Source of the DNA: a virus
DNA length: 64,000 nucleotides
Reading direction: 5' to 3' (one strand)
Virus record (IMG/VR): IMGVR_UViG_3300021490_000001
Span: 1 to 64,000 of that record
Shown here in pieces: positions 2,507-51,087 of this stretch; within the stretch, counting starts at the first letter, position 1, and the number at the start of each line of letters is the position of its first letter. A program made the position numbers and the translations under genes. The notes beneath the pieces are model-generated. The model saw only the letters and a list, made by a program, of their open reading frames with translations. It was not told where the DNA came from and ran no database searches.

Positions 2507-2521
2507 TAAAGAGGGATAATT

Positions 2522-9898: not shown

Positions 9899-10744
9899 AT
9901 GAAAATGAATGAAAAATGGAAAGATAACTATGACTTTGTTGGCTATTTTTCAGAAGGGCTTGCAGAGGTTAAAAAGAATGAAAAATATGGATTTAACAAT
10001 AAGAAAGGAAAGACTGTAATTCCATTAAAATATGACTATGCTGATTCCTTCTCAGAAGGGCTTGCATTGGTTAGAATTAATGAAAAACATGGATTTATTG
10101 ACAAAAAAGGGAAAATCGTAATTCCATTAAAATACGACTTTGTTGACTCTTTTTCAGAAGGATTGGCAGGGGTTGAAAAGAATGGAAAATATGGATTTAT
10201 TAATAAGAAAGGGAAAATTACAATTCCTTTAGAATATGACCTTGCTGGCTTTTTTTCAGAAGAAGTAACATGGGTTAAGAAAGATGGAAAATACGGGTTC
10301 ATTAACAAGAAAGGTAATGTTATAATTCCATTGAAATATGATGATGCATGCCATTTTTCAGACGGGCTAGCATGGATTAAGGAAAATGGAAAAGAAGGAT
10401 TTATCGATAAGAACGGGAAAGTAGTAATTCTATTAGAATATGATCAGGTTTATACTTTTTCAGATGGGCGTGCATTGGTTGAAAAAGATAAAAAATATGG
10501 ATTTATTGATAAGAAAATGAAACTCGTAATTCCATTGGAATATGAGGATGCTGAGTCTTTCTCAGAAGGACTTGCACGAGTTAGAAAAAATGGTAAAGAT
10601 GGATTTATCGACAAGACTGGAAAAATTGTAATCCCATTAGATTACGATGATGTTGGTCCTTTTTCAAATGGAAAGTCCTGGGTTCTGAAAAATGGTAAAG
10701 AATATTTTATTGATAAAAAGGGAAATGTAAAATGGGACGAGTAA
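9899..10744 (+). CDS. WG-repeat (KWG Leptospira-type) protein
   Basis: About 7 repeats of KYGFIDKKGKIVIPLKYD...FSEGLA.V. Confidence 0.9.
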   Translation: MKMNEKWKDNYDFVGYFSEGLAEVKKNEKYGFNNKKGKTVIPLKYDYADSFSEGLALVRINEKHGFIDKKGKIVIPLKYDFVDSFSEGLAGVEKNGKYGFINKKGKITIPLEYDLAGFFSEEVTWVKKDGKYGFINKKGNVIIPLKYDDACHFSDGLAWIKENGKEGFIDKNGKVVILLEYDQVYTFSDGRALVEKDKKYGFIDKKMKLVIPLEYEDAESFSEGLARVRKNGKDGFIDKTGKIVIPLDYDDVGPFSNGKSWVLKNGKEYFIDKKGNVKWDE

Positions 10745-29981: not shown

Positions 29982-30869
29982 CTAGATGCCTGTTAATGTG
30001 CATACTGCATCTGGTCTTACAACTGCTATGCCGACTCTTTCGAATGCCTGAACTTTTGTAGTGTGTTTATCTTGGTCATCGAACATGTTGATCGATACGG
30101 GCATTGCTTCGCCTACTTGGTATGCTCCACCTGGTCCTCTCTTTAGGATTATAGCTGTATCTTCTGTGACTTCTGTGCATTCGATAATCTTAAGTCCCAT
30201 GAAGAAAGGTAGTACTCCTGTGCTTACAGTTTTCTCAGTTAGACCATTCCATAGATTTTGGGAAACGATTGTGGTTAGTTCTTCTGCATTTGTTGGGTTA
30301 AGAAGAAGTGTGTCCGCTTCGTATCCTTTGTTTTTGATTAGTCTCTTTGCCCTGCGTATGTTTTGCACGGGATCAGCTGTTGTAGAGCTCCATACACCTT
30401 TTGGATTAGCGTAAGTACTTCCTGCATCTGCAATCAATCGTGTAACGATTACACTGTCTTCTTTCTTTATGACTTTGGTTACAGCTTGTTTAGACTGAGC
30501 AGCCCTAATTGCTAGTTTTGATAGGTGGTCTGCTTCCCATGTTAGCTGGAATCCTTTACCATATTTCTTGATGTTCACTACGCTTTCTGTTGCATCTGCA
30601 TCGTCATATACGAAGTCTGCTCCTTCGCCTACCTCTGTTGCATCGCCTAGATCAGAAAAAGGGTAAAAGTAATATTTGGTAGCTCCCTGATCTTTTAGTT
30701 TTTCGACCATACAATATTGTCGAAGTCGTGCTATGTCTTCTAGTTTTTCAATCGCTGCATCTCTGATTACTTCTGAAACCTTTCGCGGAATCGAATCAGT
30801 AGTTACAGTGAAGGAAAAGTCCTTTCTCTTAAGAGAGAAGCTTTTTTTCTCTGGAGTTGTATCTGTCAT
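29982..30869 (-). CDS. Major capsid protein (HK97 fold)
   Basis: EVGEGADF, IKKYGKGFQLTWE, DTLLLNP, FMGLKII, AFERVGIAVVRPDAV; start MTDTT after GAGGTGA. Confidence 0.9.
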   Translation of the reverse strand: MTDTTPEKKSFSLKRKDFSFTVTTDSIPRKVSEVIRDAAIEKLEDIARLRQYCMVEKLKDQGATKYYFYPFSDLGDATEVGEGADFVYDDADATESVVNIKKYGKGFQLTWEADHLSKLAIRAAQSKQAVTKVIKKEDSVIVTRLIADAGSTYANPKGVWSSTTADPVQNIRRAKRLIKNKGYEADTLLLNPTNAEELTTIVSQNLWNGLTEKTVSTGVLPFFMGLKIIECTEVTEDTAIILKRGPGGAYQVGEAMPVSINMFDDQDKHTTKVQAFERVGIAVVRPDAVCTLTGI

Positions 30870-30880
30870 TTCATTCACCT

Positions 30881-31306
30881 CTACTGAAGCCTCAAGTCAA
30901 TTACTGCAGTTGTATCTGTAGTAGTTGCTGGTATAACAACGGGTCCAAGATAGTCACCGCGTATTCCTATTCCTGCAAATGTGGTTCCATAGGTTGCAGC
31001 TACTGTTGCTAAGCTTGCTGTTGTGGCAGATAGGATCATCCTTGCTCCAGCAGTTGTTGCAGCACCATCTGCGGTTACGGTTACTTTAGCTAACCCAGAA
31101 GTCTGGACAGTTAGTTCTGCCGATTCTGCTGTCGAAGTTGTGTCCTTGCCCACTACGACTACACCAATTACTGAACCGGATACGCTTTCACCGACTGTTC
31201 CTGTTCCATTGTCTGCTAAACCGGAGCTGTATATCACTATACTTCCTGGAGTTATAGCAGATGTCGTTGAAGCGGAAGTTATTGTTATATTAGATGGTAG
31301 GGACAT
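30881..31306 (-). CDS. Capsid cement/decoration protein
   Basis: Between scaffold and MCP; AITPGSIV...VIGVV...TVQTSG. Confidence 0.65.
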   Translation of the reverse strand: MSLPSNITITSASTTSAITPGSIVIYSSGLADNGTGTVGESVSGSVIGVVVVGKDTTSTAESAELTVQTSGLAKVTVTADGAATTAGARMILSATTASLATVAATYGTTFAGIGIRGDYLGPVVIPATTTDTTAVIDLRLQ

Positions 31307-31935
31307 TAGTCATCACCCTCCGTTAGTTCTTTAAGTTCTTTTTTAAGATCGTCTGCCTTGAGACCAGCACTTTCTCTTGTTGATATTCTGGACTTTAGGT
31401 CTTTGATCTTAGACTCGATTTCTCCGGTTTTAGCTTTTTTGAGTTCTTTTCCTTTCAATGATGCTTTTCCGTCCTCAGTTTCCTCAATGGCTTCAACTCT
31501 AGACTGAAGTGCATTAATTGCAGTAAGGTCTAGTTTCTGATACTCTTTTGCCATGTCGGTAGCTTTTTCCTTAGAATAGAGTTCTTTTTTTAGTTCGAGG
31601 TTTACGAGCTTGTTTATTTCTGCAGCTTTTTCTTTCTGCTCGTATTCACTGACTTTCTTAGAAAGTTCAGTTTTTTCTTCGACTAGGGAATCAACCTTTT
31701 CCTTTAGTTCTTTGATTTCATCCTCGTTTTCTTTTTCTTTTTCATCTTTTTTTGGTTTGGGATATCCTTCAGGATATGGGTATTCTTCTTTTTTCTTTTT
31801 CTTTGCCAAGCCCTCAATAAGAGCTGCTAGGTCTTTTTCGATTTTTGCCAGCCTGTCTTCTACGCTAGCAGAATCACTTCTAGGAGAATCTCCATCAGTG
31901 ATCACATCATCGAATAGATCGTTTACGTTTGTCAT
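31306..31935 (-). CDS. Capsid scaffolding protein
   Basis: E/K-rich coiled coil with YPYP motif, upstream of the MCP. Confidence 0.75.
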   Translation of the reverse strand: MTNVNDLFDDVITDGDSPRSDSASVEDRLAKIEKDLAALIEGLAKKKKKEEYPYPEGYPKPKKDEKEKENEDEIKELKEKVDSLVEEKTELSKKVSEYEQKEKAAEINKLVNLELKKELYSKEKATDMAKEYQKLDLTAINALQSRVEAIEETEDGKASLKGKELKKAKTGEIESKIKDLKSRISTRESAGLKADDLKKELKELTEGDD

Positions 31936-31999
31936 GATTACATAACAAAGTGCAGACTATATTAATGCTAACATTCTCTGTGTCTCATTTATATAGGAA

Positions 32000-34900
32000 T
32001 TAGTACAGAATTGTGCATATGTCACAAGCTGGTTCCATGACTAATGCTGCATGTCCCCATCCTATAATCTTTATTGCTATTTCATTATTGGAATTGTCTT
32101 TGTAGGAATCTGTCCAGCAACGCATAGAGACGCCACGTATTTGTCTTGTGGCAAGCTGTTTATTTACTTCGCTGTTGGTTATCTTGAATTTTATTATCAT
32201 TGCTTTGAGATCATCGTCCCATCGAGAGCTAAGTATCTTGCCTACCTGATGGATTACATCATCCGAATGATCTCTTACTATATTAAGTCCATTTGGTTTT
32301 GGTGCATTCTTTACGACCTCCTCAGAATAAGTAATGCCATTCCATACTCCAGGAGCAAATCCTATTGCTTCCCATGTATCATTAGTTTCCTTGCTTAATT
32401 CTCTTATTGTAAAGGAATGGCTTTGCCATGCTGTAGTCTTAGGAGCATCTGTATCTTTTTTTAGAATCCAAGTTTTGTTTTGTCTTGTGGCTGTATATAT
32501 TCCTTTAAGTTTCCCTGAAGTAAACTTAATTTGTTTAAGATCAGATGTGTCTTTCAATATAGTTGCTGTTCCACTTGTAAGTTTTCGTATCCATGCTGGT
32601 GTATTCTTAGTCCGATTTTCTGGATGACCTGGCTTCAGTTCGCCTGAATATGTGAACATATCTATATTTTTATCATGTCTTAATATTCCTGCCACTGTGT
32701 TTGTATCTATTAGATTGTGCTGTAGGATAAAATGACTGTATGTGTCTTTGCCTGGTTCTTTTATCCTTAAGTCATACACTTGTTTTGATGGACCTTTTCT
32801 TATTACGACTGGCCCTTTCCAATATCTATGCTGAAGGACATATTTAGCAGAGTTAGCATAATTTAAGGCATTTGTATTTATCTCATTAGAGAATCCGAAA
32901 GTGTCATTATCATTCGCTAACATCGAAACAGATCTACCTTTTGTTAATCTCTCTATCCATGATTCCAAATGAGGTTCAAGCTTAATTGATTCCTCGCTGA
33001 AATTCGTAATTAAGAGATTAGGTATATTATATTTTACTGCATTTTGTAAATTGGTTTTTAGGCTAGCAGTTTTGGCTTCTTGCGTCACAACATTTCTTGC
33101 ATCTAGGATCAAGACATCTATGCCATTTCCTTTAAGTAATTCTTCATTTGAGTGATCTAATGCATAAGCGAATGAGCAAGGGCCTATATCTATTTTTAAT
33201 GCAGTCGCTTCTTTGCCAATTGCTTCTATCTTAACTCCTGTAAGTGTTAAATGTCTATCAAATACATGGATCTCATTAGGATAGTTTAATCTTTTGAGTT
33301 CCGCTTCCATTTCCTTAGTCCCATAAATTGGGATGTCTATTTTATTCTTAAGTGCCCCAATATGTTTTGGGCTTATTCCTGTAAGGATTATTGCATCGGG
33401 ATTGTCTTCTTTGAGTTTGCCTAAATAATCGATTCCTGCATTTATCCTAATTTTTATTTTATCTGTAGATAATAGCGCGCTTGTATTTAGTTTATGAGTT
33501 TTTGATTGCTTTCCTGAGCCTAAAGTACCATACCAGAAGATAGTAGCATTGGAGATATTATAGTCTATCAACATAGCTTTCTGTATAGGAAACGGTTGTT
33601 TCTTGATAGCATTAATCAGATCTAATCTTATTTGCTTTCTTTTACTTCGTTCATCATAATTCCAATACTGATATTGCTTTGGAATCTTAGATGCTAATTT
33701 CTTAGGGATCGCTTTTATTCCTTTCTCTGGCACATAGTCTTTGTTTATACTTCTTAGTGTAAGCATATAAGGAGGAGAATTAGAAGGAAAACCCATCCAT
33801 GTGAAATATCCTTCTGGTGTTTTTTTCCATTCGGATTTGTTCTCTAATTCTCTGAATGAGAACTTACCATTGAGTAACTTTCCATCGAAAAAGTATTCAT
33901 GATATTGGCTTTTTTGCGCTCCATACTGCACAGTGCCTTTATCTACTATTATAAACTGTCCTGCTTCCTTTTTTGTTGCGCCTATTTCACCTGGTTCAAC
34001 CCATCCTTCTGCAGTAAGCCATTCAATGGGTTCTACTTGTTTTAGCTTGCAGTTGAACTTAGTTAATGGATTGTGGAACTTGTCATCTACTATAGGTTTT
34101 ATTTCTTTATTGTACAATTCTTTAGCATCTTCGAAGGAAGTAGCATCTCTTGAGAATCCTTTGGGAACAAATAAAGTATATCCTATTAGGTGTTTGTCGC
34201 TAAATTGTATGCGAAGATCGAGATGTACGCTACGCCCACGTGCGTGTGCGTGTATTACATAATTATACGTTTTAGATTCATCTGGTATTTTAAGGTAGAC
34301 ATCAGAGTAATCGAGTTTCTCTTCTGTTTTTTCCAGATCGAAGAGTGAACGCGCTGATTTTGGCATTCTCTTCTTTTCTTCTGTTCCTGTTGTTTCTTGA
34401 ACTATTTCTTTTACTCGTTTGATAGAGAATGCATCTTCTTTTCCTCTATGTCTTATGACTCTTGGACTCCACCAGTTGAACCATAGTTTTCCTTTATCAT
34501 CATATTGTGATATTTCTACTACTATTACTTCTATTGTTTCTCCTTCTTTTGCGTCTATATTTGTATTAAATGTTCTGCCTATGTATGCTTCATCTTTAGG
34601 AGAACCAACAACACAGTCGTAGAAGAATGTATTTTCTGTGCCAGCTACTTTATGTTTCTTTTTTATTCTGGCAAAGATCGAAACTTCATTTTTATATTTA
34701 AGGACTTTATCTGTCTTCCCATCAAAATCATAAATGTGTGAAGGCATCTTGATCATAGCTCCTTCGCTTCCTGGAAGTTTTGATTTCTTTTCTATTGCAT
34801 TCCTTACATCATCAAGATCTTTAGCTATAATAGGATCTGTGTGAAATATATTTTTTCCCTTAAACTTGTAGATATATTCCAATCTTATGGAGTATGGCTC

Positions 34901-37744
34901 TTTAACTAATTCTTTTCCATTGAAATAAAGCGTATCGTATACATGCGCTTGGAGATATTTCTCATCTGGTGATACTTCTTTTGAATGAATAATGCCTGAC
35001 GTGACTGCCCTTGGCTGATGTTTTCCATCTTTATATAATTCTATTTCAAATTCCGCTTCAAAGTCACCGTTTATTTTAAGGAACTGCTCCTTTAGGGTAG
35101 GAACCTTATTGGTAATAATATTTCCTTCATCTGACCATATATTTATTTTTTCATTAATTTTATGGACTTGGGCTCTTATGCCATCATATTTCTTTTCTAT
35201 GTATAATCCATTTTCTTCTAATTCTTTTTCCCATTCTGGTTTGGATTTGATTACATTGATTACACTCAAAGGAGTATATATCTCTTCTTTTGATCGCCCA
35301 TGAGTTGGCTTAGGCATTGTATGGAATTTTCCTAACTTGAAACCTGGGTGGGATAAATTTTTTGGACTGACTAATTCCCATTGGATTCCGATACTACCTA
35401 GACATTCCATTGTGTAATCTGTTAGATCAGAAGCTATGAGTAGGCTTACGGAATTTTCATCCAATAGCTTAAGGACATCTTCACGTATATTAGAGGTTAT
35501 TTCTTGTTTGGTTCCATCAGGGCATACCAGAAATTTAGCAGTAGCAAAAGATGCAAGATTACCTGCCTTATCGATTAACTGCCACTTTGCCTCTGTATTA
35601 TCGACCAGGCTCATTTCATGTAATCTATGGTCTGTATTTGGAACAAGTTCTAAATCCCAAATTGGGTAATGATTAGTAAATGGGCCATGAAGTGTATCAT
35701 ACAAAAAATGCACTCTTGGTCTTAATTTTTCAGGAAGTGCACGTAAGATTCTGAATTTAAGTGCTCTGTCTTCATTTGGGTTTTCAGGTTCCTCTTTTTT
35801 AATAAGTATGTCTATATCGCCTGTTGTACCTTCTTTCTCATGGGTTGCAACGCCACCAACTATATATACATACGGTTCAGCTAATTTAATATTACCTTGG
35901 AAATGTGGCAAAATATCCTTGATAAATATTCGTTCTCCATCTACTTTGCCAGATGGATTTACCCGCACATAACGGAAGTTAGTTAAGTCTCTTGTTCGTT
36001 TATGTAATGCAATGATTTTATTATAAAATTGTCTGGAATATTTTTTCATTTTATTAGAGTGAAATTTTGTTCCTCTTCTTGTGAGTTCTTTGTATACTTT
36101 AAGTCCTATGTCTGTTAATTCTTTTAGTGAATATTTTGTCTTCTGGCCTTTTAGTGCATTTACATATTCGTTTGATAGGAATCTCCAATCATCTTTTAGT
36201 TGTACTGTTTTTCTTGATTTTGGAGTATAATCGGATATGTTTTTTGTATATTGTAGATTCTTTTCTCTTATGAATGGCAGAATCGAATCTTCTGGCTTCA
36301 TTGTTCCAAGATATTTTAGTGTGGCATCATCGAGTGCATCTTGATAGTGGTGCGTGAAATGTCTCCTTTCAAATTCCTTAGTTATTCTATAATGTGCGTT
36401 TACTAGATCAGCCATCTCTTTTCCGCTTGTTATACCATGCCTTAGATAGTTTCCAAAAGCAACATGGAGTTTGAAATGAGTTCCAATTACTTGAGAATCT
36501 GTATATCCTTCAAGCAATTTTGTAGTTATGCTTGGCGTCTTGATTAAATCCTGTTCAAGATGAGCATCAAGAGAGTCTATCTTATTGATTTTTATTTTAT
36601 GATCTAAATAAGGAACAATTTTATTATGAGTTGATATTATTTGCTCCATAGTCCAAGAAGCGACATGTTTCCCTTCGCTGAATTTTCTTGCCATTCTGTG
36701 TAAGTTATAATGCACTTCATATAATGAGTCCTCATTCATTAAAGACGGTTCTGTTAAATTTTTCATTAAGTAACGTGGGAATATTAGCTTATACCATTTC
36801 TTAGAGTCTTCTTTTTTGTATGTTGAAGAGGTATCCTTTAGAACAAATCCTTCAATGGACTTATTCTCTGTGGCTTTAATTATGTCCTTAAAATTCTCAT
36901 AGGATTTTATGGTGAGATATTTTACTTTTGAAATGTATTTTTTATCGCTTACCTTTTCAAGTTTCATTTTTCGCTCATATAATAACTCTTCTGTATGATA
37001 AGTTCCGTTTGTATTTAGTATGTCAAATACCTTTACCCTTAATGATTTATCTGGTGTCGTTATGTCTTTGTTTGAAATTATCGAATATACATCTTTTCCT
37101 GTATCTGAGATTAGTTCTCCATCGAGGATTAATATGTCATAGTTTAATTGCTTTACTTCATCTAAAATGTGCTGAATTTTATTATTTGGAATTCTATTTC
37201 CAAAAAAAGTATATGCAGAAACTTTGTTTAGGTCCTTGTGTATTTGTATTCTTATTCCATCTTCTTTCTTTTCAAGAATAAGATTAGCGAAATCTAAGTC
37301 TTTCATGTCTTCATAGCAGAAGAATTCGTTTGATATGTTGTTTATCTTATCCTTAAATGGCTTAATGGGCTGAACAAATTCTATATTCGTGCTTGTAAAG
37401 TTATTGAATGCAGGAATGTCAGCATAAAAACCTTTCTCTAAGTTGGCGTTTATTTTCACCGGTGCAGAGAACTTGAAGATAGATTTGATTGCATATTGAT
37501 AAAAGATCTTGGTCTTTTGCCTGAATTCCTTTTTAAGATTATATGTATAAATTGCTTGTTGTAATTTGCATTCTTTAGGGGTGCTTAGTGAGAGTATAGC
37601 TAAAGCATGTTTATTTTTTACAAATACTAAGTCTTTGTTTATGGCTTTTCGAGAATATATTTTGGAAATAATCTCTTCTTTACCATTCAATCGATTTTGT
37701 ACAAGTTGAAAAACTGTGTTGTCTATTCCTATCATAATTTTCAC
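32000..37744 (-). CDS. Multidomain prohead protease polyprotein: ligase adenylation domain, His-rich helical repeats, nucleotidyltransferase, ATP-dependent DNA ligase (with OB), LigD phosphoesterase, inactive MBL, degenerate phosphoesterase, capsid maturation protease
   Basis: EKKEDGIR/ILDGEL/VFDIL/EGFVLK/WYK; IVGGVA...GDIDILI; EKKYDGIR/YDTL/EGAMIK/LKYK; VIHAH...HLDLR; GTLGSG...PDAIILT; VRDH...VGKI...RGVS...ALVMEPAC. Confidence 0.85.
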   Translation of the reverse strand: MKIMIGIDNTVFQLVQNRLNGKEEIISKIYSRKAINKDLVFVKNKHALAILSLSTPKECKLQQAIYTYNLKKEFRQKTKIFYQYAIKSIFKFSAPVKINANLEKGFYADIPAFNNFTSTNIEFVQPIKPFKDKINNISNEFFCYEDMKDLDFANLILEKKEDGIRIQIHKDLNKVSAYTFFGNRIPNNKIQHILDEVKQLNYDILILDGELISDTGKDVYSIISNKDITTPDKSLRVKVFDILNTNGTYHTEELLYERKMKLEKVSDKKYISKVKYLTIKSYENFKDIIKATENKSIEGFVLKDTSSTYKKEDSKKWYKLIFPRYLMKNLTEPSLMNEDSLYEVHYNLHRMARKFSEGKHVASWTMEQIISTHNKIVPYLDHKIKINKIDSLDAHLEQDLIKTPSITTKLLEGYTDSQVIGTHFKLHVAFGNYLRHGITSGKEMADLVNAHYRITKEFERRHFTHHYQDALDDATLKYLGTMKPEDSILPFIREKNLQYTKNISDYTPKSRKTVQLKDDWRFLSNEYVNALKGQKTKYSLKELTDIGLKVYKELTRRGTKFHSNKMKKYSRQFYNKIIALHKRTRDLTNFRYVRVNPSGKVDGERIFIKDILPHFQGNIKLAEPYVYIVGGVATHEKEGTTGDIDILIKKEEPENPNEDRALKFRILRALPEKLRPRVHFLYDTLHGPFTNHYPIWDLELVPNTDHRLHEMSLVDNTEAKWQLIDKAGNLASFATAKFLVCPDGTKQEITSNIREDVLKLLDENSVSLLIASDLTDYTMECLGSIGIQWELVSPKNLSHPGFKLGKFHTMPKPTHGRSKEEIYTPLSVINVIKSKPEWEKELEENGLYIEKKYDGIRAQVHKINEKINIWSDEGNIITNKVPTLKEQFLKINGDFEAEFEIELYKDGKHQPRAVTSGIIHSKEVSPDEKYLQAHVYDTLYFNGKELVKEPYSIRLEYIYKFKGKNIFHTDPIIAKDLDDVRNAIEKKSKLPGSEGAMIKMPSHIYDFDGKTDKVLKYKNEVSIFARIKKKHKVAGTENTFFYDCVVGSPKDEAYIGRTFNTNIDAKEGETIEVIVVEISQYDDKGKLWFNWWSPRVIRHRGKEDAFSIKRVKEIVQETTGTEEKKRMPKSARSLFDLEKTEEKLDYSDVYLKIPDESKTYNYVIHAHARGRSVHLDLRIQFSDKHLIGYTLFVPKGFSRDATSFEDAKELYNKEIKPIVDDKFHNPLTKFNCKLKQVEPIEWLTAEGWVEPGEIGATKKEAGQFIIVDKGTVQYGAQKSQYHEYFFDGKLLNGKFSFRELENKSEWKKTPEGYFTWMGFPSNSPPYMLTLRSINKDYVPEKGIKAIPKKLASKIPKQYQYWNYDERSKRKQIRLDLINAIKKQPFPIQKAMLIDYNISNATIFWYGTLGSGKQSKTHKLNTSALLSTDKIKIRINAGIDYLGKLKEDNPDAIILTGISPKHIGALKNKIDIPIYGTKEMEAELKRLNYPNEIHVFDRHLTLTGVKIEAIGKEATALKIDIGPCSFAYALDHSNEELLKGNGIDVLILDARNVVTQEAKTASLKTNLQNAVKYNIPNLLITNFSEESIKLEPHLESWIERLTKGRSVSMLANDNDTFGFSNEINTNALNYANSAKYVLQHRYWKGPVVIRKGPSKQVYDLRIKEPGKDTYSHFILQHNLIDTNTVAGILRHDKNIDMFTYSGELKPGHPENRTKNTPAWIRKLTSGTATILKDTSDLKQIKFTSGKLKGIYTATRQNKTWILKKDTDAPKTTAWQSHSFTIRELSKETNDTWEAIGFAPGVWNGITYSEEVVKNAPKPNGLNIVRDHSDDVIHQVGKILSSRWDDDLKAMIIKFKITNSEVNKQLATRQIRGVSMRCWTDSYKDNSNNEIAIKIIGWGHAALVMEPACDICTILY

Positions 37745-38955
37745 ACATTTGTATCTTCTATAGCCAAGGCTTTTTTTACTGCCTTTGATCCTTCTTCTCT
37801 TGTTATTAGACCTGCTCTGACTGCTTCTGTTAAGTAGCTGATTTTATAGTTGTTTATTTCTGCTCTTTCTTTTTCGTTGTCAATCGAGAGTGTATTCCAC
37901 CCTAGATCTGGTATATTGAATAATCCTCTTCTTATACAGGCATTAGTGAATATTTGAAGCTCTATGCTTGATGAAACAGTCTGCTGAAGCTGGACTATTT
38001 CTTTTTCTGACTGTTTGATCAAAAATTCGAGAGAGCTTCTATTGAGATTTTTACCTTTAGGTAATAGTGTTTCTTTTGGAACTCTTAGGCAACCGGAAAT
38101 AGAATCAAGTATGTTCTCAAAAATAGGAGTGAAATCAGGGAAGTTCTTCTTTTCACCTATTAGTTTTATCTCTAGGTTATCTGTTGATGAGATAATAGAG
38201 GTTCGCTTAAAATTTTTAAGATCTTTATGTAAGTCTTCTAAGTCTTTTTCTTCTGCTTCTTTTAGTGTTCCATGAAGAGAAGGATTAGAGTACTTGTCTA
38301 TGGCTTCATCTGAGGATTTTTCTGCTGATCGTTTTGAGTATAGTCTATGTAACATTGGTTCTATTAGTCCTATACCATGTATGTTATCCTCAATTGACCA
38401 GAATTTTAAGTGCATTACTTGGTCTGGTCTTAGGATTATCGTTTTACTTTGGTACTTATTTATGGTTTGTTCATATCGAATTATTTTTCCTTTTTTGTCC
38501 CATTTGGGTTCTATCGTATCTGGATTGATATACGCTGTATCTACTATATTATTTCCTGCCCAGATCAATTCTAGATAACCATCTCCATAACCTAATGCAT
38601 CCCCTATTGTTTTTCTAAGATTTGGCTTAAATGTTTTGCTTGTGATTATCTTAGTGCAGATTTCAGACTCTTTTGTAAATGCTGGTCCTGGAACGGTAAA
38701 AAAGCCTGTTCCAAGTATAGCCTGAACTAGTAGATTTATTCCTGTAAATACCATTGGATCCTTGTATCTGTAATACTGAAGATCTTCAAATGGAGCTCGA
38801 TTATAGCTACTAGTTAAAAGATAGCTATTGAAATCTTCTGTATTTTCGCCCATAGAAACATAAGTTCTCTTTTTAGGCAATGGCCTGGGCTTAAATCTAT
38901 TAAACATAATATTGACTTTTTTTGATATATCCCTGTTTAGAGAACTGAGCTTCAT
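37741..38955 (-). CDS. Portal protein
   Basis: DALGYGDGYLEL, INPDTI, QVMHLK...IHGIGLIEP, LRVPKETL. Confidence 0.9.
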   Translation of the reverse strand: MKLSSLNRDISKKVNIMFNRFKPRPLPKKRTYVSMGENTEDFNSYLLTSSYNRAPFEDLQYYRYKDPMVFTGINLLVQAILGTGFFTVPGPAFTKESEICTKIITSKTFKPNLRKTIGDALGYGDGYLELIWAGNNIVDTAYINPDTIEPKWDKKGKIIRYEQTINKYQSKTIILRPDQVMHLKFWSIEDNIHGIGLIEPMLHRLYSKRSAEKSSDEAIDKYSNPSLHGTLKEAEEKDLEDLHKDLKNFKRTSIISSTDNLEIKLIGEKKNFPDFTPIFENILDSISGCLRVPKETLLPKGKNLNRSSLEFLIKQSEKEIVQLQQTVSSSIELQIFTNACIRRGLFNIPDLGWNTLSIDNEKERAEINNYKISYLTEAVRAGLITREEGSKAVKKALAIEDTNV

Positions 38956-38990: not shown

Positions 38991-40511
38991 TTATTTATAT
39001 AGTAATGCGATCGAATCAAAACGAGGTATCCTATCTGTTGAATCATTGTTCATTATTACCTTTATTCGTGGATATCTTCCAGCATTGATTATAGTATGAA
39101 CTTCTTTTAGATTGACTGATTCCCATATGTTTGATGCAGTGAATGCAACATAGAATTTACAATTATCTGTTTTATAATCTGCATTTGTCTTTATCATGCA
39201 TTCTGTTGGTGTAAAGCTTAATACAGAACTTGGTGAAATCCAAGTGCCTGTGCTTCCAGAAATTACAGCTAATTCTGTTTTTTCATTGTTGTTGCTAGTT
39301 ATATTTGTAACATTAGAACTTGATGGATCTATATCACTACTTGAATCAAAGGTATAATTGATCGAATATTGCATTCCCTCTTCTTGAATATCCTTAAGGG
39401 CTCCTTTTGCTTTATCATTTAATTCCAATATGCTCGTACTTAAATCACTTGGTCTCTGGGCATAATTAAATGAAGTAAGCAATCCCTGTTCATTGAGTGT
39501 TGTTGTAAATGAGACTATATCTTTCCATCCATTTACTCCATCATAAGGTGAGACTACTCTGAGTTCATAACCGGGTATTTGATTAACTAATCCAATACAT
39601 CTTCCGCGTCCCATATTTTTTTCAGCACTTAATTCATTTAGTCTTTGAGTTGCCCTTACTATTAGCTGTTCATTAGTATAAGCTAAATTATCGTTATATA
39701 TATCTTCCTTGTCGCTTGATCCGGTAGATACAGTAGTTAAATTTGGCAATCCATCGATTCTTGCTCCTGATGCATATATCTTATTTCGGATAGTCGTTGA
39801 ATCGAATATATTATTCAAAGAGATTAAATTCATTGCATATGCAACATATTCTGTACTATTTTGCCTTCCTGCTCCTGTTTTCTTAAAGAAGTAAAAATCC
39901 TTGAATGTATTTCCTTTGAGGAATAAATAACATCCACAATACTCAGCTACAGTCCGTAGGCAGTCCATAACAGACTGACCAACGAATTTAGGGGCTAAAG
40001 TATCCGCGATAGCATCTACATTCGTATATGTAAATCCTGTAGTGTAGGTATCTATTATATCCTTTATGATATAATCTCCTGTCTGTGCGCTTGTATAGCT
40101 CTTCCAGACGAAGATCTTATGCAGGTCATAGGTATAATCATAGCTAGTTAAAGTTACGAATCTACCACTTGTGCTTAGATCTAGAGAATATTTTTTGACG
40201 GTTCCTTCGAACTGTTGAGTTGTCGCATCCTGGAAATCATAATAGATTTTAATCACTGCATCATTTTCTATCTTGTCTGTAAAGTAGCCATTCTTGTTGA
40301 CTAAGACCACATTAGATGACCATGATCTAGCGTCTGCATTAGCGGATACGCTAATTGATTTGACATAATCTGAAATGTCCGTTAATGTGGAATCTATCAT
40401 CAGCTCTACTTTTCTATATGGTCTATAGTATTCACCTGGAACGAATACTCTTCCATCTACTGATTTCTTTATAGGGCTTGAACTTATTGAATTAACTGCC
40501 ATTACCAACAA
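38991..40511 (-). CDS. Baseplate hub / tail tip protein (gpD/Tal-like); start probably MAVNS 40502
   Basis: DISDYV, QFEGTV, IIKDII, DCLRTVAE, IRNKIYASG, PGYELRV pattern; downstream of the tape measure. Confidence 0.7.
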   Translation of the reverse strand: MLVMAVNSISSSPIKKSVDGRVFVPGEYYRPYRKVELMIDSTLTDISDYVKSISVSANADARSWSSNVVLVNKNGYFTDKIENDAVIKIYYDFQDATTQQFEGTVKKYSLDLSTSGRFVTLTSYDYTYDLHKIFVWKSYTSAQTGDYIIKDIIDTYTTGFTYTNVDAIADTLAPKFVGQSVMDCLRTVAEYCGCYLFLKGNTFKDFYFFKKTGAGRQNSTEYVAYAMNLISLNNIFDSTTIRNKIYASGARIDGLPNLTTVSTGSSDKEDIYNDNLAYTNEQLIVRATQRLNELSAEKNMGRGRCIGLVNQIPGYELRVVSPYDGVNGWKDIVSFTTTLNEQGLLTSFNYAQRPSDLSTSILELNDKAKGALKDIQEEGMQYSINYTFDSSSDIDPSSSNVTNITSNNNEKTELAVISGSTGTWISPSSVLSFTPTECMIKTNADYKTDNCKFYVAFTASNIWESVNLKEVHTIINAGRYPRIKVIMNNDSTDRIPRFDSIALLYK

Positions 40512-43500
40512 CTCACACAGTCACTGCAACAGGCTGATATGTTGTAGGTTATATCAGGATAGGTTCCACCTGCTGTACAGCTAAAATAATCTCTCCACAA
40601 CCATAAGCCATTTGAATCTAAGGAGTCTAATGTTAAGTATCGAGTCAGAGTTTCAGTTAGCAATCCTCCGTCATTCTTAGAGCTTGTATTGCTTATTGTT
40701 TCATTGATACATGAGTTTGGCTGGGTATCGAATCTGATTGCATAATCCGCTCTATGCGTGCTAAGAGATGATATGTTCATTATAGGGATGCTCGATGTCT
40801 GACCAAATGGAGTCACATTTTTTGAGTTGCTAGTTAGAGGCATATAATCTATATTTTCGATTAATCTTGGAAGAGTAACATCGAAATTGCTCCAAATAAT
40901 CTTTGCTGTGTGAGAATTATTGCTGGCATAGTAATTAACATTGCCATCAAAGTGGGCGGTTATAGTTACATTATCATCCCCATAATAAGATATGTTCAAG
41001 TTAGATAAAGTTACATTGCCCCAATAGTTAGCAGTGATGTTTAGAGGGATATCTACATTTTTTTCGTTTTTGTTATCCACATAATCTTGGAATTTAGTTT
41101 CATTCAATTCTATTGGATTATAGGTATAATTTATTTGGATATCTGAATATGTTAGATACCCAGGAGTTAAAGATGAAAAGACAATGGGAATATTGCATGC
41201 TGGTGATTCGCAGTTATTGGAGTTGATATATTGTTGTATACTTGTGGCATTTAGATCTATGTTTTTAGAATCATTAAAATCACCAGACATAGAATATTCT
41301 ATGTCTTCGTCTGCTCCTATATTGATTGTCACATTAGAAGGATATGATTTGGTATAGGTGTACTTATGAATCACATTATTTGCGTAATCACTGACATAAA
41401 AATAATCACCATCATTTTCGATACCAGATATTTTATATGTAGTAATCGAGCCAAAGCAGGAATCAGTTTCACTTAGATTAGATGTATAATATCTGGAGAT
41501 TCCTGTACCATAATCATTACTTTGGGTATAGATATAGTTATTAGATTCAAATGTGCCATAGGTTAGATATGCAGGTAATCTATCACTATTTAGTCTCCAT
41601 ACATTTTGATATGTGATTTCCGTTCCATCAACATTTCTTTTGGTAAGTTGGAAATACGTAAACATATGATATATTTCATTAAACTCCATTAAATATAGAT
41701 AACCATCATCTCCATATTCTATATCATAGAGTAGTCTTGGAGCTGTAAATAGTTCTTTGATGTATGTTCCATTTTTCCATAGTAAATGTGTTTTATTTGT
41801 TGATGTTTCAGTTATAAAATAATGTGTGCCATTACTTGTAATTCCATAGGCACCGTCTATTGTACTATTGAAGCTAGTTTGATAAGTTCCATCAGTATTG
41901 TATTCAAAGACGATTCCATTATCCCCTACAATTTGGATCCTACCAGTGGAATCGAGATTCATACCACGAGGAGTACCTACCCTAGAGATATCAAATGAGT
42001 CATTGATATTTGTTCCAATAGGGGCTTCAGCTCCAGTTAAAGTCAAATTAGATGTTTCTATTGTTGCATCTTTAGACATTCGAATATATCGAATACTTGA
42101 TTGAAATTCATTAACAAGCATGGCTTCTGTTTCATGATAAGTAGAGTCTTTGAGATTATATTGATAGCTATAATTCTCAGTTAAGTAGCCTGGTAGCTCT
42201 ATGTCAGCAATCGAATCATTATTATAATCTACATTTAGATCTAAACGATAATAAGAAAATACACCATTTTGGGGTGCAATATGCAACCCCAATTCAAAAT
42301 TAATTATTTCATAGTCTAAAAAATTATATAGTATAATAGGCTTTGGAAATGTATTGCTAGTCCATCCAGATTCAAATCGAGTATCTCGTTCCCAACAAGT
42401 ACCATTCCACTGATAAACTTGAAAGGTTGTTCTGGAAGTTGTTATAATTCTGCTAATTTCTAGTCCTTCTATACTTTTAAATGTCTCAGAATTTTGATAT
42501 AAATAACTATCAGATGAAGGTAAACCACAAACTTTAGTTGTATCCTCAATCCAAGTAGATCCATTATAGTAGTAGTTTCTATATCCTACAGCATCCGCAT
42601 TATATGAACTAGTCATCATTGTCCAATTATTTTCATTGTATAAGTTATAATCTACATTAGCAGCAGTTACCCATAATCTATCATGTATTCCGCTAAAGAT
42701 AGAATTATTAACGTTCCATCCAGTTCCATTCCATGTATAACCAGACCAATTTCCAGTATACAAACCAACAAATAAATGAGTATTTCCATCACCAGAAAAA
42801 TTAAAGTTAAATTCCGGATTAATCCATTTTTCTGGATTATATAGCCCATTAACCAGCGTTGAATTTTCTTCCCAACAAGTACCATTCCATTGATAACCAA
42901 TATATGAATCAGAATCATAATGAGCTAATATTAATGTCCATTTTTCGTTCCCTGAGAAATTATACATTATATCTCCAGCATCATATGAATCTTCAGGTAC
43001 TCCGCATCCAAATGTTTCGTTTAATTCCCATTTTTTAAATCTAAGATGCGTATTACCACTTATATTAATATATGCAGATTTAATTTGAGAGTAATTACTT
43101 AAAGTAAACCATGCTGTATCATTCTCAAATTCATCACTTATAAATTCAGTAGTTGAATCATTAAACTCATCTAATGTTGCATCTGTAGTCCAATTATATT
43201 CCACAGTTCCATTTGAGCAGATATAGTCATCACCGTAATTCGTAGAATCGATATCAAGGCAAATTGTCTCATTGATAAGGTCTCCAGTAGAATTTGTTAT
43301 ATTTGCTTTGAGTTCTGCCACATGACCTAATTCATAATATCTATCCTGGCTTAATCCATTTAGATATAGCGTACTCACTGAATTATTTGGTATTAGTTGT
43401 TGAACGGTCGTAGTCATATTAGACTTGCTTGTGTTTTCAGTTCCATCTCCTGCCCAGAATTCTGCTGTCAGGTTATCCCAATAAGTATAATTTCCATACC

Positions 43501-46249: not shown

Positions 46250-46602
46250 GTGATCACCTTAAGTATGATTGTAAAGTCCCTGAATGTAGCATGCGTATCA
46301 GCATTATGAGGTATATTAACCGATTCAACTTGGACAGTCAGGTCTCCATTATCTGTATCATTATAGCTTACTGAATCGAGGCTGTCAGCATATCCCTTAA
46401 GCGTAGCCATATCAGCTTCTCGATTGGCTCCAAATAATCTTCCTTTGAGCGTTATTACATTGCTCATTACTGATACTACCTGTGTCTGTGGTGCTGTCCT
46501 TCCTGGAATAGGTTGAGCCGGGACTAATTTCTTATTTGGCCTGTCTACTATATTACAATATAAACTTACTGAACCTAGTGTTACTGATGTGATCCTTGTC
46601 AT
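46246..46602 (-). CDS. Putative distal tail protein
   Basis: Directly after the tape measure; IPGR...VITLKG pattern. Confidence 0.55.
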   Translation of the reverse strand: MTRITSVTLGSVSLYCNIVDRPNKKLVPAQPIPGRTAPQTQVVSVMSNVITLKGRLFGANREADMATLKGYADSLDSVSYNDTDNGDLTVQVESVNIPHNADTHATFRDFTIILKVIT

Positions 46603-50055: not shown

Positions 50056-51087
50056 TTAACTCCATGGAGACGCATCTGAATTGTAGATATGGCAACTATC
50101 GAGAGCTAATGGTCTGATTGCCATAGCAAGTGTAATAGGGGTATTGCCTACGTCCTTAGTAAATCCAGGAGTATCAATTATTGAGTTTTTGAATCCTATA
50201 AAGATTTCGTCTTTTGTTGTAGTTGCACTACGAGTCATTGTGATATTGAAATTAAAGTCAAAGATAGTTGTGCCTTGTGCCTTGGTTGTGGTTTCAACAC
50301 CACCTGTGGTTCCTGTAAAGAACGCATCATAGTGTTTTCTGTCTGTGAAATCTACATTAAGGATTGCATTGTAATTTCTTCCCTGCTCATGGATTGCAGA
50401 GATGCATCGTTCGTCTCCTGTATCAGTGCAATACATTTTTGGATTAAGATCATTATCGATTGTGACTTCCCAGCGATTTACATTTTCGAATACTTCAGCT
50501 ACTGTAGTTGCAGCATTATTTGTCTTGATAACACAGTGATGCCACCTGAAAGGCTCTACATCCGGTGCGCTTGCTGTAAGGACAGTAGTTGCGATTCTCA
50601 TATCTTGGGCTATGAAATCAACATTCTCTGTTACAAAACCACCTGAGTCGCCTGAGATCGAATATCTGCTAACTTTGCATCCTTCATATTCTCTAGAGAA
50701 TCCACTACCTGCTACCTGGTCATACAAAGTAAACGAAGGGATTTCATCCTTCTCTGCGATTGTATGGTCATAGTAGTCTGCGGTTGTTGTTCCGACAGGT
50801 GAGCTTGTTACGCTTCCAAAGGCCATTTTCAAAAACCATCCATCACTTAGCCATTGTGAAAAAGAATCAGAATAGCTAAGAGGCCCTAACTGAGGTTGTG
50901 GCATGTTTCTTGTATTTACTCCATCAAAGAATCTCTGATCACTGAATCCTTTGTTTTCTGAGCCTGCTGGTCCTGAAATAGGGAACCTTAACTTAGTGGC
51001 TGCTGCTGTTGTAGCTGTTCCATAAGTTGCTTCTTCTGCTACAAATATCTGGCCTGAATAGCCAAATGCTGGTCGTGTAATTGTCAT
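50056..51087 (-). CDS. Major tail tube protein
   Basis: AEEATYGT, YDHTI, PSFTL, YEGCKVS, EVTIDNDL, GRNY. Confidence 0.85.
   Translation of the reverse strand: MTITRPAFGYSGQIFVAEEATYGTATTAAATKLRFPISGPAGSENKGFSDQRFFDGVNTRNMPQPQLGPLSYSDSFSQWLSDGWFLKMAFGSVTSSPVGTTTADYYDHTIAEKDEIPSFTLYDQVAGSGFSREYEGCKVSRYSISGDSGGFVTENVDFIAQDMRIATTVLTASAPDVEPFRWHHCVIKTNNAATTVAEVFENVNRWEVTIDNDLNPKMYCTDTGDERCISAIHEQGRNYNAILNVDFTDRKHYDAFFTGTTGGVETTTKAQGTTIFDFNFNITMTRSATTTKDEIFIGFKNSIIDTPGFTKDVGNTPITLAMAIRPLALDSCHIYNSDASPWS

Follow-up and report, generated by a model that had tools for sequence, protein, structure and literature searches.

The nucleotidyltransferase-ligase-phosphoesterase module described here recurs in the head gene block of many diverged viruses and is repeatedly fused to a protease. 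In the virus under study it belongs to a polyprotein of 1914 codons. We put at about one half the probability that this polyprotein is a polyvalent head protein whose C-terminal domain is the capsid-maturation protease and which carries a packaged, LigD-like kit that would heal and seal DNA ends. The window, the whole 64,000-nt stretch of DNA analysed, corresponds to positions 1 to 64,000 of IMG/VR record IMGVR_UViG_3300021490_000001. The source record is a complete 72-kb contig with direct terminal repeats, and the virus is probably a tailed virus of archaea. The nucleotidyltransferase and phosphoesterase domains are abbreviated NTase and PE below.

37741..38955, minus strand: portal gene, upstream neighbour (Portal_Mu PF06074, 4.4e-12; phrog_12, 4.2e-14)
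32000..37744, minus strand: polyprotein ORF, 1914 codons, GTG start at 37744 (ORF list)
37388..37744, minus strand: N-terminal region, residues 1-119, without family match
36785..37387, minus strand: ligase 1, ATP-dependent adenylation (NTase) domain (PF01068, 1.4e-22, residues 147-320)
35975..36784, minus strand: His-rich helical region, residues 321-590 (profile and AF2 model)
35606..35926, minus strand: minimal Pol-beta-superfamily NTase, residues 607-713 (motif, with marginal statistics)
35339..35605, minus strand: unassigned virus-specific insert, residues 714-802 (89 residues), between the NTase and ligase 2 (gap in homologues)
34445..35338, minus strand: ligase 2, adenylation domain and probable OB domain (PF01068, 1.3e-21)
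33596..34330, minus strand: PE1, LigD-type 3'-phosphoesterase enlarged by inserts, residues 1139-1383 (profile and motif)
32885..33559, minus strand: MBL-like region, residues 1396-1620 (ESM Atlas feature match, a lead only)
32456..32836, minus strand: PE2, second PE-fold domain, catalytically degenerate, residues 1637-1763 (profile)
32360..32455, minus strand: PE2-protease linker, residues 1764-1795, with RELS at 1781-1784 as candidate self-cleavage site (motif)
32003..32359, minus strand: serine protease domain of the prohead (capsid-maturation) type, residues 1796-1914 (fold and profile)
31306..31935, minus strand: 209-aa acidic coiled-coil protein, presumed scaffold (weak coiled-coil matches only)
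29982..30878, minus strand: HK97-fold major capsid protein (phrog_1650, 2.7e-30; PF25209, 1.6e-14)

An intact ORF within the head gene block

The polyprotein ORF is real and intact. Both the gene call in the database and the record in the Atlas begin three codons further on, at ATG 37735, and give 1911 aa. Contigs from three further studies cover it with no indels listed; in one of these studies a single 6002-nt contig spans 33126-39127, differing by 35 substitutions without any gap, and overlapping contigs tile the rest of the ORF. Among the listed between-strain substitutions in the ORF, 24 of 31 are synonymous, and on this evidence the reading frame is under purifying selection. A misassembled chimera, a concern raised in the preliminary description of this locus, does not fit these contigs. 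That the gene is an assembly artefact, whether a chimeric contig or neighbouring genes falsely fused, is extremely improbable: nothing but the unusual ORF length speaks for it, and the complete record with its terminal repeats, the independent contigs, the synonymous substitutions and a fused architecture common to relatives all speak against it.

The gene had been placed between portal and scaffold genes, and its neighbours bear this out, with the portal gene upstream and coiled-coil and HK97-type capsid genes downstream. The end of the portal gene overlaps the start of the polyprotein by 4 nt. The 209-aa coiled-coil gene begins 64 nt downstream of the ORF, and a 141-aa protein is also encoded downstream. 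A TATA-like sequence lies in the intergenic gap after the ORF. From its position, we infer a scaffold role for the 209-aa protein. The motifs from which the domains had originally been read (KEDG, GG...GDIDIL, KYDG, HLDLR, VRDH, RGVS and ALV..PAC) were all located at the positions given for them.

A C-terminal prohead protease and candidate cleavage sites

The VRDH and RGVS motifs of the protease domain end at H1826 and S1873, respectively, and ALV..PAC follows at 1899-1906. Both H1826 and S1873 are invariant in the protease alignment and are conserved in a 64-sequence box alignment as well. The assignment of the C-terminal 140 aa to a herpes/HK97-type protease is upheld by the AF2 model of the domain (pLDDT 82.7, pTM 0.78), which in VIA-align matches T4 gp21 (5jbl; Z 9.9, rmsd 4.0, 127 residues aligned) and the VZV protease (1vzv; Z 9.2), with the next unrelated fold at 6.7. 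Foldseek matches the model to herpes assemblins (probability 1.0, E 1.8e-3), and a BFVD search with it returned 112 matches at E <= 1e-3, the named ones being mostly prohead proteases. There is no direct Pfam match of the domain at E <= 10, and neither S78 model, PF04586 or PF14550, matches anywhere in the complete genome. The connection to these models is transitive, as the protease family profile matches L011 (PF04586, 2.2e-9) and L008 (PF14550, 1.2e-6); it also matches L049 and L009 (phrog_976, head maturation protease). No other protease-like domain was found in the complete genome.

The linker between PE2 and the protease carries RELS, and the insert ahead of ligase 2 ends with KNLS at residue 795. 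Among distinct linkers, 25 of 39 contain [LM]S, a motif picked after viewing the data, compared with 8.4 ± 2.5 in random same-length segments (maximum 16 in 1000 draws). The motif [KR][NDE][LF][STQ] occurs seven times in the polyprotein versus 0.93 ± 1.0 in shuffles, four times at domain junctions and three times within the helical region; since the cleavage motifs were picked after viewing the sequences, these counts are not independent tests. Similar tetrapeptides are present in the neighbouring head proteins, with KELT near the C-terminus of the 209-aa presumed scaffold and KDFS at residue 19 of the capsid protein.

Two ligase domains

Two stretches of the polyprotein score 80.9 and 77.6 bits against PF01068, for which the cut-off is 26.2. 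Motif I is KEDG in ligase 1 (residues 160-163, K160) and KYDG in ligase 2 (residues 852-855, K852), and its K, D and G are invariant in the ligase alignment of the family. Further motifs read from the sequence, which we take to be motifs III-V, are DGEL, EGFVLK and WYK in ligase 1 and EGAMIK and LKYK in ligase 2. The two domains share 34% identity over 106 aa (E 1e-9). Ligase 1 had been described as an adenylation domain without an OB domain, and this description stands: neither Pfam nor the sequence places an OB domain after it, the helical region coming next. Its match to PF09414 (RNA_ligase, 1.3e-5) is below the cut-off.

The family profile of ligase 2 matches archaeal and eukaryotic DNA ligases in the PDB, down to 2e-20. 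The earlier reading of ligase 2 as a complete enzyme with an OB domain is firm for the adenylation part and probable for the rest. Following the adenylation domain, the stretch WFNWWSPRV...R..K.D is invariant in the family alignment, and the putative OB domain would close with a motif-VI-like WWSPRVIRHRGKED that is co-linear with RFPR of a solved ligase in one non-significant alignment. Pfam gives no OB match in the ORF.

Phosphoesterase domains and the MBL-like region

PE1 contains the H1167...H1174-x-D1176-x-R1178 signature of the LigD 3'-phosphoesterase, as originally proposed, and these four residues are nearly invariant in 35 sequences. The match to Pfam LigD_N (PF13298) is 6.3e-4 at 20.3 bits, below the 31.1 cut-off, while the family profile matches 3p43 (5.4e-4) and 3p4h (1.4e-3) in the PDB, with H..H.D.R aligned to 3p43. 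Members of the PE superfamily use two histidines and an aspartate for manganese together with a phosphate-binding arginine and histidine, and they heal 3' ends by taking off 3'-phosphates and 3'-terminal ribonucleotides (PMC3082917). By its predicted residues, PE1 keeps the LigD-type metal and phosphate ligands.

PE2 is a second, degenerate copy, in agreement with the first assignment. Its family profile matches 3p43 at 1.8e-7 and 3p4h at 4.6e-5, and alignment of the PE1 and PE2 profiles by hhalign (probability 96.9%, E 1.5e-10) shows that the two domains are related; in the PE2 alignment the catalytic histidines are not conserved and only one arginine is invariant. For the region between them, the proposed MBL fold finds an echo in ESM Atlas language-model features (0.91 against MBL/Apyc1 clusters, 150 shared), a value too low to tell relatives from chance matches. 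The region has no Pfam or PDB sequence match and reads TGISPKH where the HxHxDH metal motif would be, so that the motif is degenerate. Its first ~85 residues are found in only 5 of 79 loci.

The helical region and the nucleotidyltransferase

The conserved part of the helical region, about residues 490-590, opens many family members, and the profile of the region matches 45 of 79 viral loci. The His-rich helical repeats noted at the outset are indeed helical in the AF2 model, in which residues 509-589 form helices with pLDDT above 90. No informative relative emerged from the fold search, which gave generic helical matches with Z at most 7.1.

The NTase domain carries GG...GDIDIL at residues 630-647 and a third aspartate in WDL. 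In an alignment of 40 sequences, the G, D, D and G are invariant and the later D nearly so. The assignment as a Pol-beta-type NTase therefore holds at the level of the motif (G, D-x-D, third D), but its statistics are marginal, with a value of 0.029 against Pfam DNA_pol_B_palm (PF14792) and a best PDB profile match of 0.0096 (1wot). The rest of the best 60 PDB matches lie at 0.07-1 and are almost all NTases or Pol X proteins. The top Foldseek matches (2rff, 7bxo and 1no5) are NTases as well, but at E 0.19 or more, and the wide VIA structure search with the combined helical and NTase model was filled by matches to its helical part. A Pol X family DNA polymerase was considered and rejected, as the conserved domain spans only ~110 residues and is without fingers, thumb or 8-kDa domains. 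In most relatives the NTase runs straight into the ligase.

A family of modules in viral head gene blocks

The gene had been treated as a singular oddity; it is instead one member of a large family, with 79 related viral loci and 382 representative proteins that match the C-terminal part of the polyprotein at E <= 1e-3. The search for homologues with a portal-module-head synteny succeeded: the NTase-ligase-PE module is present in 79/79 loci, usually downstream of a portal gene and upstream of a protease gene. Where more than 1.5 kb of upstream sequence was available, 27 of 62 loci have a same-strand portal-like ORF (17 within 600 bp); where downstream sequence exceeded 1.2 kb, 18 of 71 have a separate protease-like ORF (15 within 600 bp) and one of the 71 has the protease fused. 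These counts are lower bounds, because the profiles derive from this window. In a permuted subfamily with the order NT-PE-PE-LIG, PHROGs identifies a portal upstream in 3/3 loci that the window-built profiles had missed. Downstream, two of these three loci have a capsid-type protein and two have a weak head-maturation-protease match, and one of them, L029, also has a terminase upstream.

Most family members have the module without a fused protease. The protease domain is found on 40 of 155 collected proteins and directly follows a PE-fold domain in 38 of 39 distinct protease-bearing proteins, most of which end there. The complete order hel-NT-LIG-PE-PE-PROT is seen in six proteins, and P0025 also contains a second ligase domain; the OB-less extra ligase occurs in few relatives only. 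The family is found in both prokaryotic domains. Annotation goes at most as far as 'DNA ligase', as in the uncultured ANMV-1, the only match in the phage collection.

ANMV-1 infects ANME-1, and its protein AJP62006 (GenBank KP703175) is 37% identical to residues 575-1763 of the polyprotein, with its domains likewise in the order NT-LIG-PE-PE; its gene follows a portal-like gene at a distance of 7 nt. The protein differs in being 866 aa long and in having no second ligase, MBL-like region or fused protease. The record names AJP62006 an 'ATP-dependent DNA ligase' and the portal-like gene a 'MutT-like phage hydrolase'.

Comparison with polyvalent proteins, LigD and T4 head proteins

The nearest published concept is that of polyvalent proteins with a C-terminal assemblin-like peptidase (PMC5512222). 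As in the definition given there, the polyprotein joins many unrelated enzyme domains in one polypeptide with a C-terminal assemblin-like peptidase. Polyvalent proteins are likewise very long multi-enzyme polypeptides of portal/terminase viruses, encoded beside the portal gene, with an assemblin-fold peptidase at the extreme C-terminus, and are likewise predicted to be packaged and processed in virion assembly. The main text of that paper does not contain 'LigD', its three shown uses of 'ligase' refer to RNA ligases, and RNA ligases were, according to its authors, never seen associated (Iyer, Burroughs, Anand, de Souza, Aravind 2017). The Pol-beta NTases described there differ in being of a conjugative-element type fused to ArdC-N, and Pfam detects no MuF, zincin MPTase or ART domain, all of which are typical of polyvalent proteins, in this ORF. 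We found no published description of a ligase/PE virion cargo in the literature.

The polyprotein shares with bacterial LigD the logic of healing 3' ends, adding nucleotides and sealing, and the combination of an ATP-dependent ligase with a 3'-phosphoesterase; PE1 has the His/His/Asp metal ligands and the phosphate-binding arginine of LigD and of the stand-alone archaeal PEs (3p43, 3p4h; Smith et al. 2011, PMC3082917). The archaeal enzymes are about half the size of PE1, which has inserts and is followed by a degenerate copy. The LigD comparison made at first thus applies to the ligase and the phosphoesterase but not to the polymerase, since LigD has an AEP primase-polymerase where the polyprotein has a minimal ~110-residue Pol-beta-fold NTase; Pfam finds no AEP domain in the ORF. 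With Ku (PF02735) giving 0 matches at E <= 1 in the complete genome and the AEP polymerase absent, the label 'NHEJ' was too strong. No 5'-kinase was found either, and the kit heals only 3' ends. Two further differences from LigD are the location of the polyprotein gene among virion genes and its fusion to a protease.

The protease shares its fold with T4 gp21, which in T4 cuts the internal proteins IPI-III and Alt after these are targeted to the prohead core, to be ejected with the DNA (PMC9026906). The T4 cargo consists of separate polypeptides with a 10-residue capsid-targeting sequence (PMC9026906), whereas in the polyprotein the presumed cargo forms one chain with the protease and, unlike that of T4, consists of DNA-repair enzymes.

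Proposed function and alternatives

We strongly infer that the polyprotein is loaded into the capsid. Because a prohead protease must work inside the procapsid, the whole polyprotein would be co-assembled into the prohead at low copy. The N-terminal 1,750 residues would constitute the LigD-like kit to heal and seal DNA ends, comprising an extra ligase adenylation domain, a Pol-beta-type NTase, a complete ATP-dependent DNA ligase, a 3'-phosphoesterase whose active site is intact and two accessory domains, one MBL-like and one with a degenerate PE fold. The protease may cut the linkers, with candidate sites in short [KR][NDE]L[ST]-like motifs that lie at four of the domain junctions, near the scaffold C-terminus and at capsid protein residue 19. 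The folded enzyme domains would be too large to exit the shell and would therefore stay in the head with the DNA. The most speculative step is that the enzymes are ejected with the genome. Once in the cell, and before any viral gene is expressed, the kit could strip 3' ends of phosphates or ribonucleotides, extend them by a nucleotide if required, and close nicks or ligate ends, such that damage from packaging or host nucleases is repaired or the terminally redundant genome is closed. Several observations weigh against head loading. Most members are unfused and would need another loading route, each protease copy would take up head volume with 220 kDa of cargo, and the protease domain runs to the stop codon without a C-terminal targeting tail. 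The HK97 protease is targeted to the capsid by such a tail. The absence of Ku and of a 5'-kinase, the sub-threshold PE match in Pfam and the marginal NTase statistics also count against the reading as a packaged end-repair kit.

A repair role at the packaging stage, with nothing injected, is possible though rather unlikely. The enzymes would be made late, together with the head proteins, and, either released into the cytoplasm or retained at the portal vertex, would clean and seal nicks and gaps in replicated or concatemeric DNA ahead of packaging, the protease fusion setting only their timing, stoichiometry or location. Late expression with the head module and a position next to the portal gene fit this account equally well, as does the lack of a protease fusion in most members, and the conserved N-terminal helical domain could contact portal or terminase. 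It is also favoured by two features of packaging: headful and T4-type packaging stalls at nicks in the DNA, and ligase mutants of T4 show a packaging defect. Repeated fusion to a protease that is internal to the prohead is, however, hard to explain for enzymes working outside, and enzymes inside the shell cannot reach DNA before it enters. In addition, the TATA-like sequence after the ORF suggests separate expression of the genes for the abundant scaffold and capsid proteins, as would suit an internal protein of low copy number.

Two further accounts concern what the kit acts on and whether it acts at all. An injected kit that mends tRNA, mRNA or viral DNA cut by host defence nucleases, in the manner of T4 Pnk/Rnl1 and with no part in the closure or maturation of the viral genome, would make sense of ligase 1, which is followed by a helical region in place of an OB domain as in RNA ligases and has the sub-threshold RNA_ligase match, and of the removal of 3'-terminal ribonucleotides and 3'-phosphates by PE enzymes (PMC3082917). 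We consider it improbable, since both ligases match DNA ligases much more strongly (1e-22 and 1e-21) than RNA ligases (1e-5), ligase 2 aligns with replicative and repair DNA ligases, the ORF is without kinase or cyclic phosphodiesterase, and few relatives have the OB-less ligase. A non-catalytic, structural role, in which decayed repair domains serve as a bulky internal body or head-filling scaffold, could account for the lost histidines of PE2 and the missing HxHxDH of the MBL-like region. It is very hard to reconcile with the presence and conservation across the family of both ligase lysines, the NTase G/DxD/D and the PE1 H..H.D.R, as well as with mostly synonymous between-strain substitutions, and we give it little credence.

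Implications for virion cargo

Extending the packaged-kit reading to the family is more tentative. Many archaeal and bacterial tailed viruses may carry a capsid-packaged NTase-ligase-3'-phosphoesterase kit that is loaded through fusion to the maturation protease or association with it, cut free by the protease and injected with the genome to repair or close viral DNA or to undo host-nuclease damage before viral gene expression. If so, virions would deliver a new class of enzymes for counter-defence or genome establishment, and these would matter most in hosts without Ku/LigD end joining, which to our knowledge include most archaea. Known phage-head enzymes modify host proteins or transcribe early genes, as do T4 Alt and the N4 RNA polymerase, and a packaged DNA end-healing and sealing kit would be a different kind of cargo. 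Compact ligase-phosphoesterase-NTase fusions are a further resource in the family, together with what may be a natural way of placing large enzymes in capsids by anchoring them to a protease. Such a kit would bear on the survival of linear viral genomes at entry and on their establishment, especially in archaea.

A predicted repair polyprotein in the head gene block

The virus carries a set of repair enzymes covalently joined to its only detectable maturation protease. The domains of this polyprotein run in the order ligase 1, helical region, nucleotidyltransferase (NTase), ligase 2, phosphoesterase 1 (PE1), MBL-like region, PE2 and protease. The 72,197-bp virus record, of which the window is a part, is complete and has direct terminal repeats.

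Polyprotein gene and neighbouring head genes
32000-37744, minus strand: polyprotein ORF, 1914 codons, uninterrupted
Directly upstream of the polyprotein, 4-nt overlap: portal gene (PF06074, 4.4e-12; phrog_12, 4.2e-14)
Downstream of the polyprotein: 209-aa acidic coiled-coil protein, putative scaffold
Downstream of the polyprotein: 141-aa protein
Downstream of the polyprotein: HK97-type major capsid protein (phrog_1650, 2.7e-30)

Database gene calls begin at an ATG three codons in, giving a polyprotein of 1911 aa. With the portal gene upstream and the coiled-coil, 141-aa and capsid genes downstream, the polyprotein therefore occupies the position claimed for it in the preliminary description, and all motifs quoted there are found at their places in the protein. 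The 64-nt gap between the polyprotein TAA stop and the scaffold ATG (31936-31999) holds the TATA-like sequence TATATAAA, which may be an archaeal-type promoter driving the abundant scaffold and capsid genes apart from the low-copy polyprotein. Joining of protease and scaffold by read-through or frameshift finds no support: the scaffold gene is in a different frame, and its ATG comes 64 nt further on, past the stop and the TATA-like sequence.

A 506-aa ORF (38991-40511) directly upstream of the portal gene, at the expected place of the large terminase, has no Pfam or PHROGs match, and no terminase was identified within the window. A tail tube gene (PF18906, 1.2e-20), a 980-aa ORF and a gene for a 1915-aa LamG/DUF2341 protein (50056-51087 and 40502-49541) share the strand of the head genes and are upstream of them; tail thus precedes head, an unusual order. 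Elsewhere in the window, an Amidoligase_2 protein with an N-terminal LIM-like zinc finger adjoins a class-II glutamine amidotransferase (192-2506), a gene pair known from phage peptide-ligation systems, and a 281-aa protein (9899-10744) consists of eight WG beta-repeats (PF14903, 1e-101).

An ORF of this length could be a misassembled chimera, a concern of the preliminary description, but this one is not: contigs of other studies cover the ORF with no insertions or deletions listed across the polyprotein stretch. In sequencing run X2, one 6002-nt contig covers 33126-39127 with 35 substitutions and 0 gaps, and further overlapping contigs reach across the remainder; in X3 and X4 the coverage comes in shorter pieces. 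Run X1 is identical to the record, perhaps its source, and was left out of the independent support. One X4 contig contains a joint leaving out 33726-37513, its shorter side being only 21 letters long; it was taken as a repeat or foreign match. X1 and X2 each bridge the stretch in one piece. Within the ORF, 24 of the 31 listed substitutions are synonymous, which fits purifying selection on the whole polyprotein frame.

The C-terminal domain has a maturation-protease fold

The relationship of the C-terminal domain to known proteases is visible to fold comparison and family profiles. Pfam and PHROGs gave no match in residues 1380-1914, the family protease profile had 0 matches among PDB sequences, and a word-based homology search starting from the C-terminal 166 aa came back empty, whereas an exhaustive search later found many homologues. 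That search, with residues 1380-1914, returned 382 representative proteins at E <= 1e-3. A profile of the last 140 residues gathered 64 sequences in which His and Ser are invariant, among them ORFs called prohead proteases by Pfam or PHROGs.

Protease ORFs of related loci named by Pfam or PHROGs
L011: Peptidase_S78, 2.2e-9
L008: Peptidase_S78_2, 1.2e-6
L049: phrog_976, 1.2e-12
L009: phrog_976, 2.7e-6

The AlphaFold model of the domain, built with a 15-sequence alignment, reaches a pLDDT of 82.7 and a pTM of 0.78. Among 48,161 solved chains its best matches are T4 gp21, at Z 9.9 over 127 aligned residues, and the protease of varicella-zoster virus, at Z 9.2, against Z 6.7 for the best unrelated fold. 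Herpesvirus assemblins rank first in Foldseek (probability 1.0, E from 1.8e-3), and 112 predicted viral structures match at E <= 1e-3, the named ones being mostly prohead or capsid-maturation proteases. Fold and family profile thus bear out the earlier assignment of the C-terminal 140 aa as a herpes/HK97-type protease. In the complete genome the family profile has exactly one match and the two Pfam S78 models have none; this domain is therefore the sole detectable maturation protease of the virus.

Other protease arrangements occur in related loci. A 364-aa ORF of L050 (12871-13965) has two protease-like domains, one of the polyprotein-family type at 11-135 and a Peptidase_S78_2 at 225-358. 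In ~720-aa proteins of L023 (5027-7222), L032 (13705-15861) and L059 (15723-17894), residues 65-190 form the protease domain, and weak matches to C2H2-type zinc fingers come after it.

End-repair enzyme domains

Both ATP-dependent ligase adenylation domains score far above the Pfam cut-off of 26.2 bits (80.9 and 77.6), and they are paralogous, being 34% identical over 106 aa. Ligase 1 keeps the motif-I lysine and is followed by the helical region without an OB domain, in agreement with its first description. Ligase 2 had been described as complete with an OB domain; its adenylation domain stands, and the OB domain is probable, to judge from a following beta-rich region with the invariant WFNWWSPRV...R..K.D at its end. 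The WFNWWSPRV region is co-linear with motif VI of solved ligases in a non-significant alignment.

Residues 607-713 hold the Pol-beta-superfamily signature, with G, D-x-D and a later D conserved in 40 sequences, and fit the proposed Pol-beta-type nucleotidyltransferase, at marginal statistics (Pfam 0.029; best PDB profile match 0.0096; Foldseek 0.19 or worse). Almost all matches, though marginal, are minimal NTases and Pol X enzymes, and the region is predicted to be a minimal NTase of ~110 residues that lacks the fingers and thumb of a polymerase. For the helical region, the predicted model shows helices with high confidence, as described earlier, and no informative relative came up. The helical-plus-NTase model gave no Foldseek match at E <= 0.1 and, in a wide VIA search of solved folds, generic helical matches only (Z at most 7.1); residues 330-600 gave no usable match in the ESM Atlas. 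These searches hence provide no evidence for a MuF-like or portal-binding helical domain.

PE1 (residues 1139-1383) matches LigD_N at 6.3e-4, below the Pfam cut-off. As a 35-sequence profile it matches both solved archaeal phosphoesterases, 3p43 (5.4e-4) and 3p4h (1.4e-3), and its H1167, H1174, D1176 and R1178 line up with the residues that bind metal and phosphate in these enzymes as described in PMC3082917, consistent with the LigD 3'-phosphoesterase originally proposed. PE2 (residues 1637-1763) matches phosphoesterase structures more strongly than PE1 does (1.8e-7) and lacks the catalytic histidines, confirming a second, degenerate copy. The two are related profile to profile (96.9%, E 1.5e-10), a relation visible to profiles only, BLASTP detecting no similarity. 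Between them, the MBL-like region (1396-1620) has as its sole support a language-model feature match of 0.91 with 150 shared features; it reads TGISPKH in place of HxHxDH, and a PDB sequence search gave chance-level matches only.

The module and the head genes in related viruses

Scanned with the module alignment, viral contigs yielded 79 loci, all with ligase and phosphoesterase and 71 with the NTase, so the polyprotein is not the singular oddity it had seemed. A portal-module-protease order is seen in homologues. By profiles derived from the window, which make these counts lower bounds, a same-strand portal-like ORF lies upstream in at least 27 of the 62 loci that extend far enough on that side (<=600 bp away in 17), and a separate protease-like ORF lies downstream in at least 18 of the 71 with enough downstream sequence (<=600 bp in 15). 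Three permuted NTase-PE-PE-ligase loci had neither portal nor protease by these profiles. PHROGs places a portal upstream in 3/3, with a terminase in one and a MuF-like minor head protein in one, and downstream a capsid-type protein in 2/3 and, after the module, a ~400-aa ORF with a weak head-maturation-protease match in 2/3. The association of the enzyme set with the head gene block is thus kept across distant viruses.

The protease is fused at one locus, L020, the closest relative. Protein searches collected 155 proteins, 40 of them with the protease domain; of the 39 distinct protease-bearing proteins, 38 have it immediately behind a PE-fold domain, and most end with it. Six proteins have the full order helical-NTase-ligase-PE-PE-protease, and one, P0025, has two ligase domains like the polyprotein. 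The PE-PE-protease protein of L020 (11443-14271) bears a PAPS-reductase/PP-loop domain (residues 124-301; PF01507, 5e-19), and the cargo of head polyproteins therefore varies. In P0004 (2320 aa), about 1,400 residues with PEGA-type repeats and a dockerin-like domain (precomputed Pfam) precede the NTase-ligase-PE module, an odd combination for a protein inside the head.

The phage collection gave a single match, the published ANME-1 virus ANMV-1 (L001, KP703175); the family has no known cultured representative. Its 866-aa NTase-ligase-PE-PE protein, annotated 'ATP-dependent DNA ligase', begins 7 nt after a portal-scoring gene. That gene (1913-3193), annotated 'MutT-like phage hydrolase', scores as portal with phrog_146 (2e-30) and the window portal profile (2e-33). 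Among species genomes, the contigs with the closest relatives belong to bins of Methanosarcinales, Methanobacteriota and Methanophagales, and more distant relatives are in bacterial bins. The runs containing the polyprotein virus are hydrothermal-vent and marine-sediment metagenomes, none of those listed being recorded as RNA, and the host is likely archaeal, ANME or methanogen-like.

Possible processing and delivery

Judged by its conserved residues, the enzyme set has intact catalytic motifs: in PE1 for healing 3' ends, in the NTase for adding nucleotides, and in ligase 2 (perhaps in ligase 1 too) for sealing. The NHEJ label given to it earlier does not hold, as the complete genome has no Ku gene and neither an AEP polymerase nor a 5'-kinase was seen. 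Because a prohead protease acts inside the procapsid, the polyprotein would enter the procapsid; the protease would then cleave its linkers, and the folded enzyme domains, unable to escape, would remain in the head with the DNA. Two motifs hint at such cleavage and are candidate processing features, both picked after viewing the data. [KR][NDE][LF][STQ] occurs 7 times in the polyprotein against 0.93 +/- 1.0 in shuffles, three of the seven inside the helical region; it falls at four domain junctions (328, 585, 795 and 1781), and further copies occur close to the C-terminus of the scaffold and, in the capsid protein, at residue 19. Of 39 distinct linkers between PE2 and protease, 25 have [LM]S, where control segments give 8.4 +/- 2.5.

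In the most speculative step, the enzymes would be ejected with the genome and would repair or close the incoming DNA, an idea based on the analogy of T4 internal proteins and Alt (PMC9026906) and on what was predicted for polyvalent proteins (PMC5512222). The main competing reading has the enzymes repair DNA during packaging, with no delivery, and the data do not separate it from ejection.

The literature covered, mostly open main texts, gives no account of a ligase/PE module within a head gene block, or of one joined to a prohead protease; the supplementary lists of PMC5512222 may name such proteins. LigD is absent from the main text of PMC5512222, where 'ligase' refers to RNA ligases only. 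The architecture of the polyprotein fits the polyvalent-protein concept set out there. With two ligases and an extra MBL-like region on the sole protease of a complete genome, the polyprotein is one of the most elaborate members of its family.
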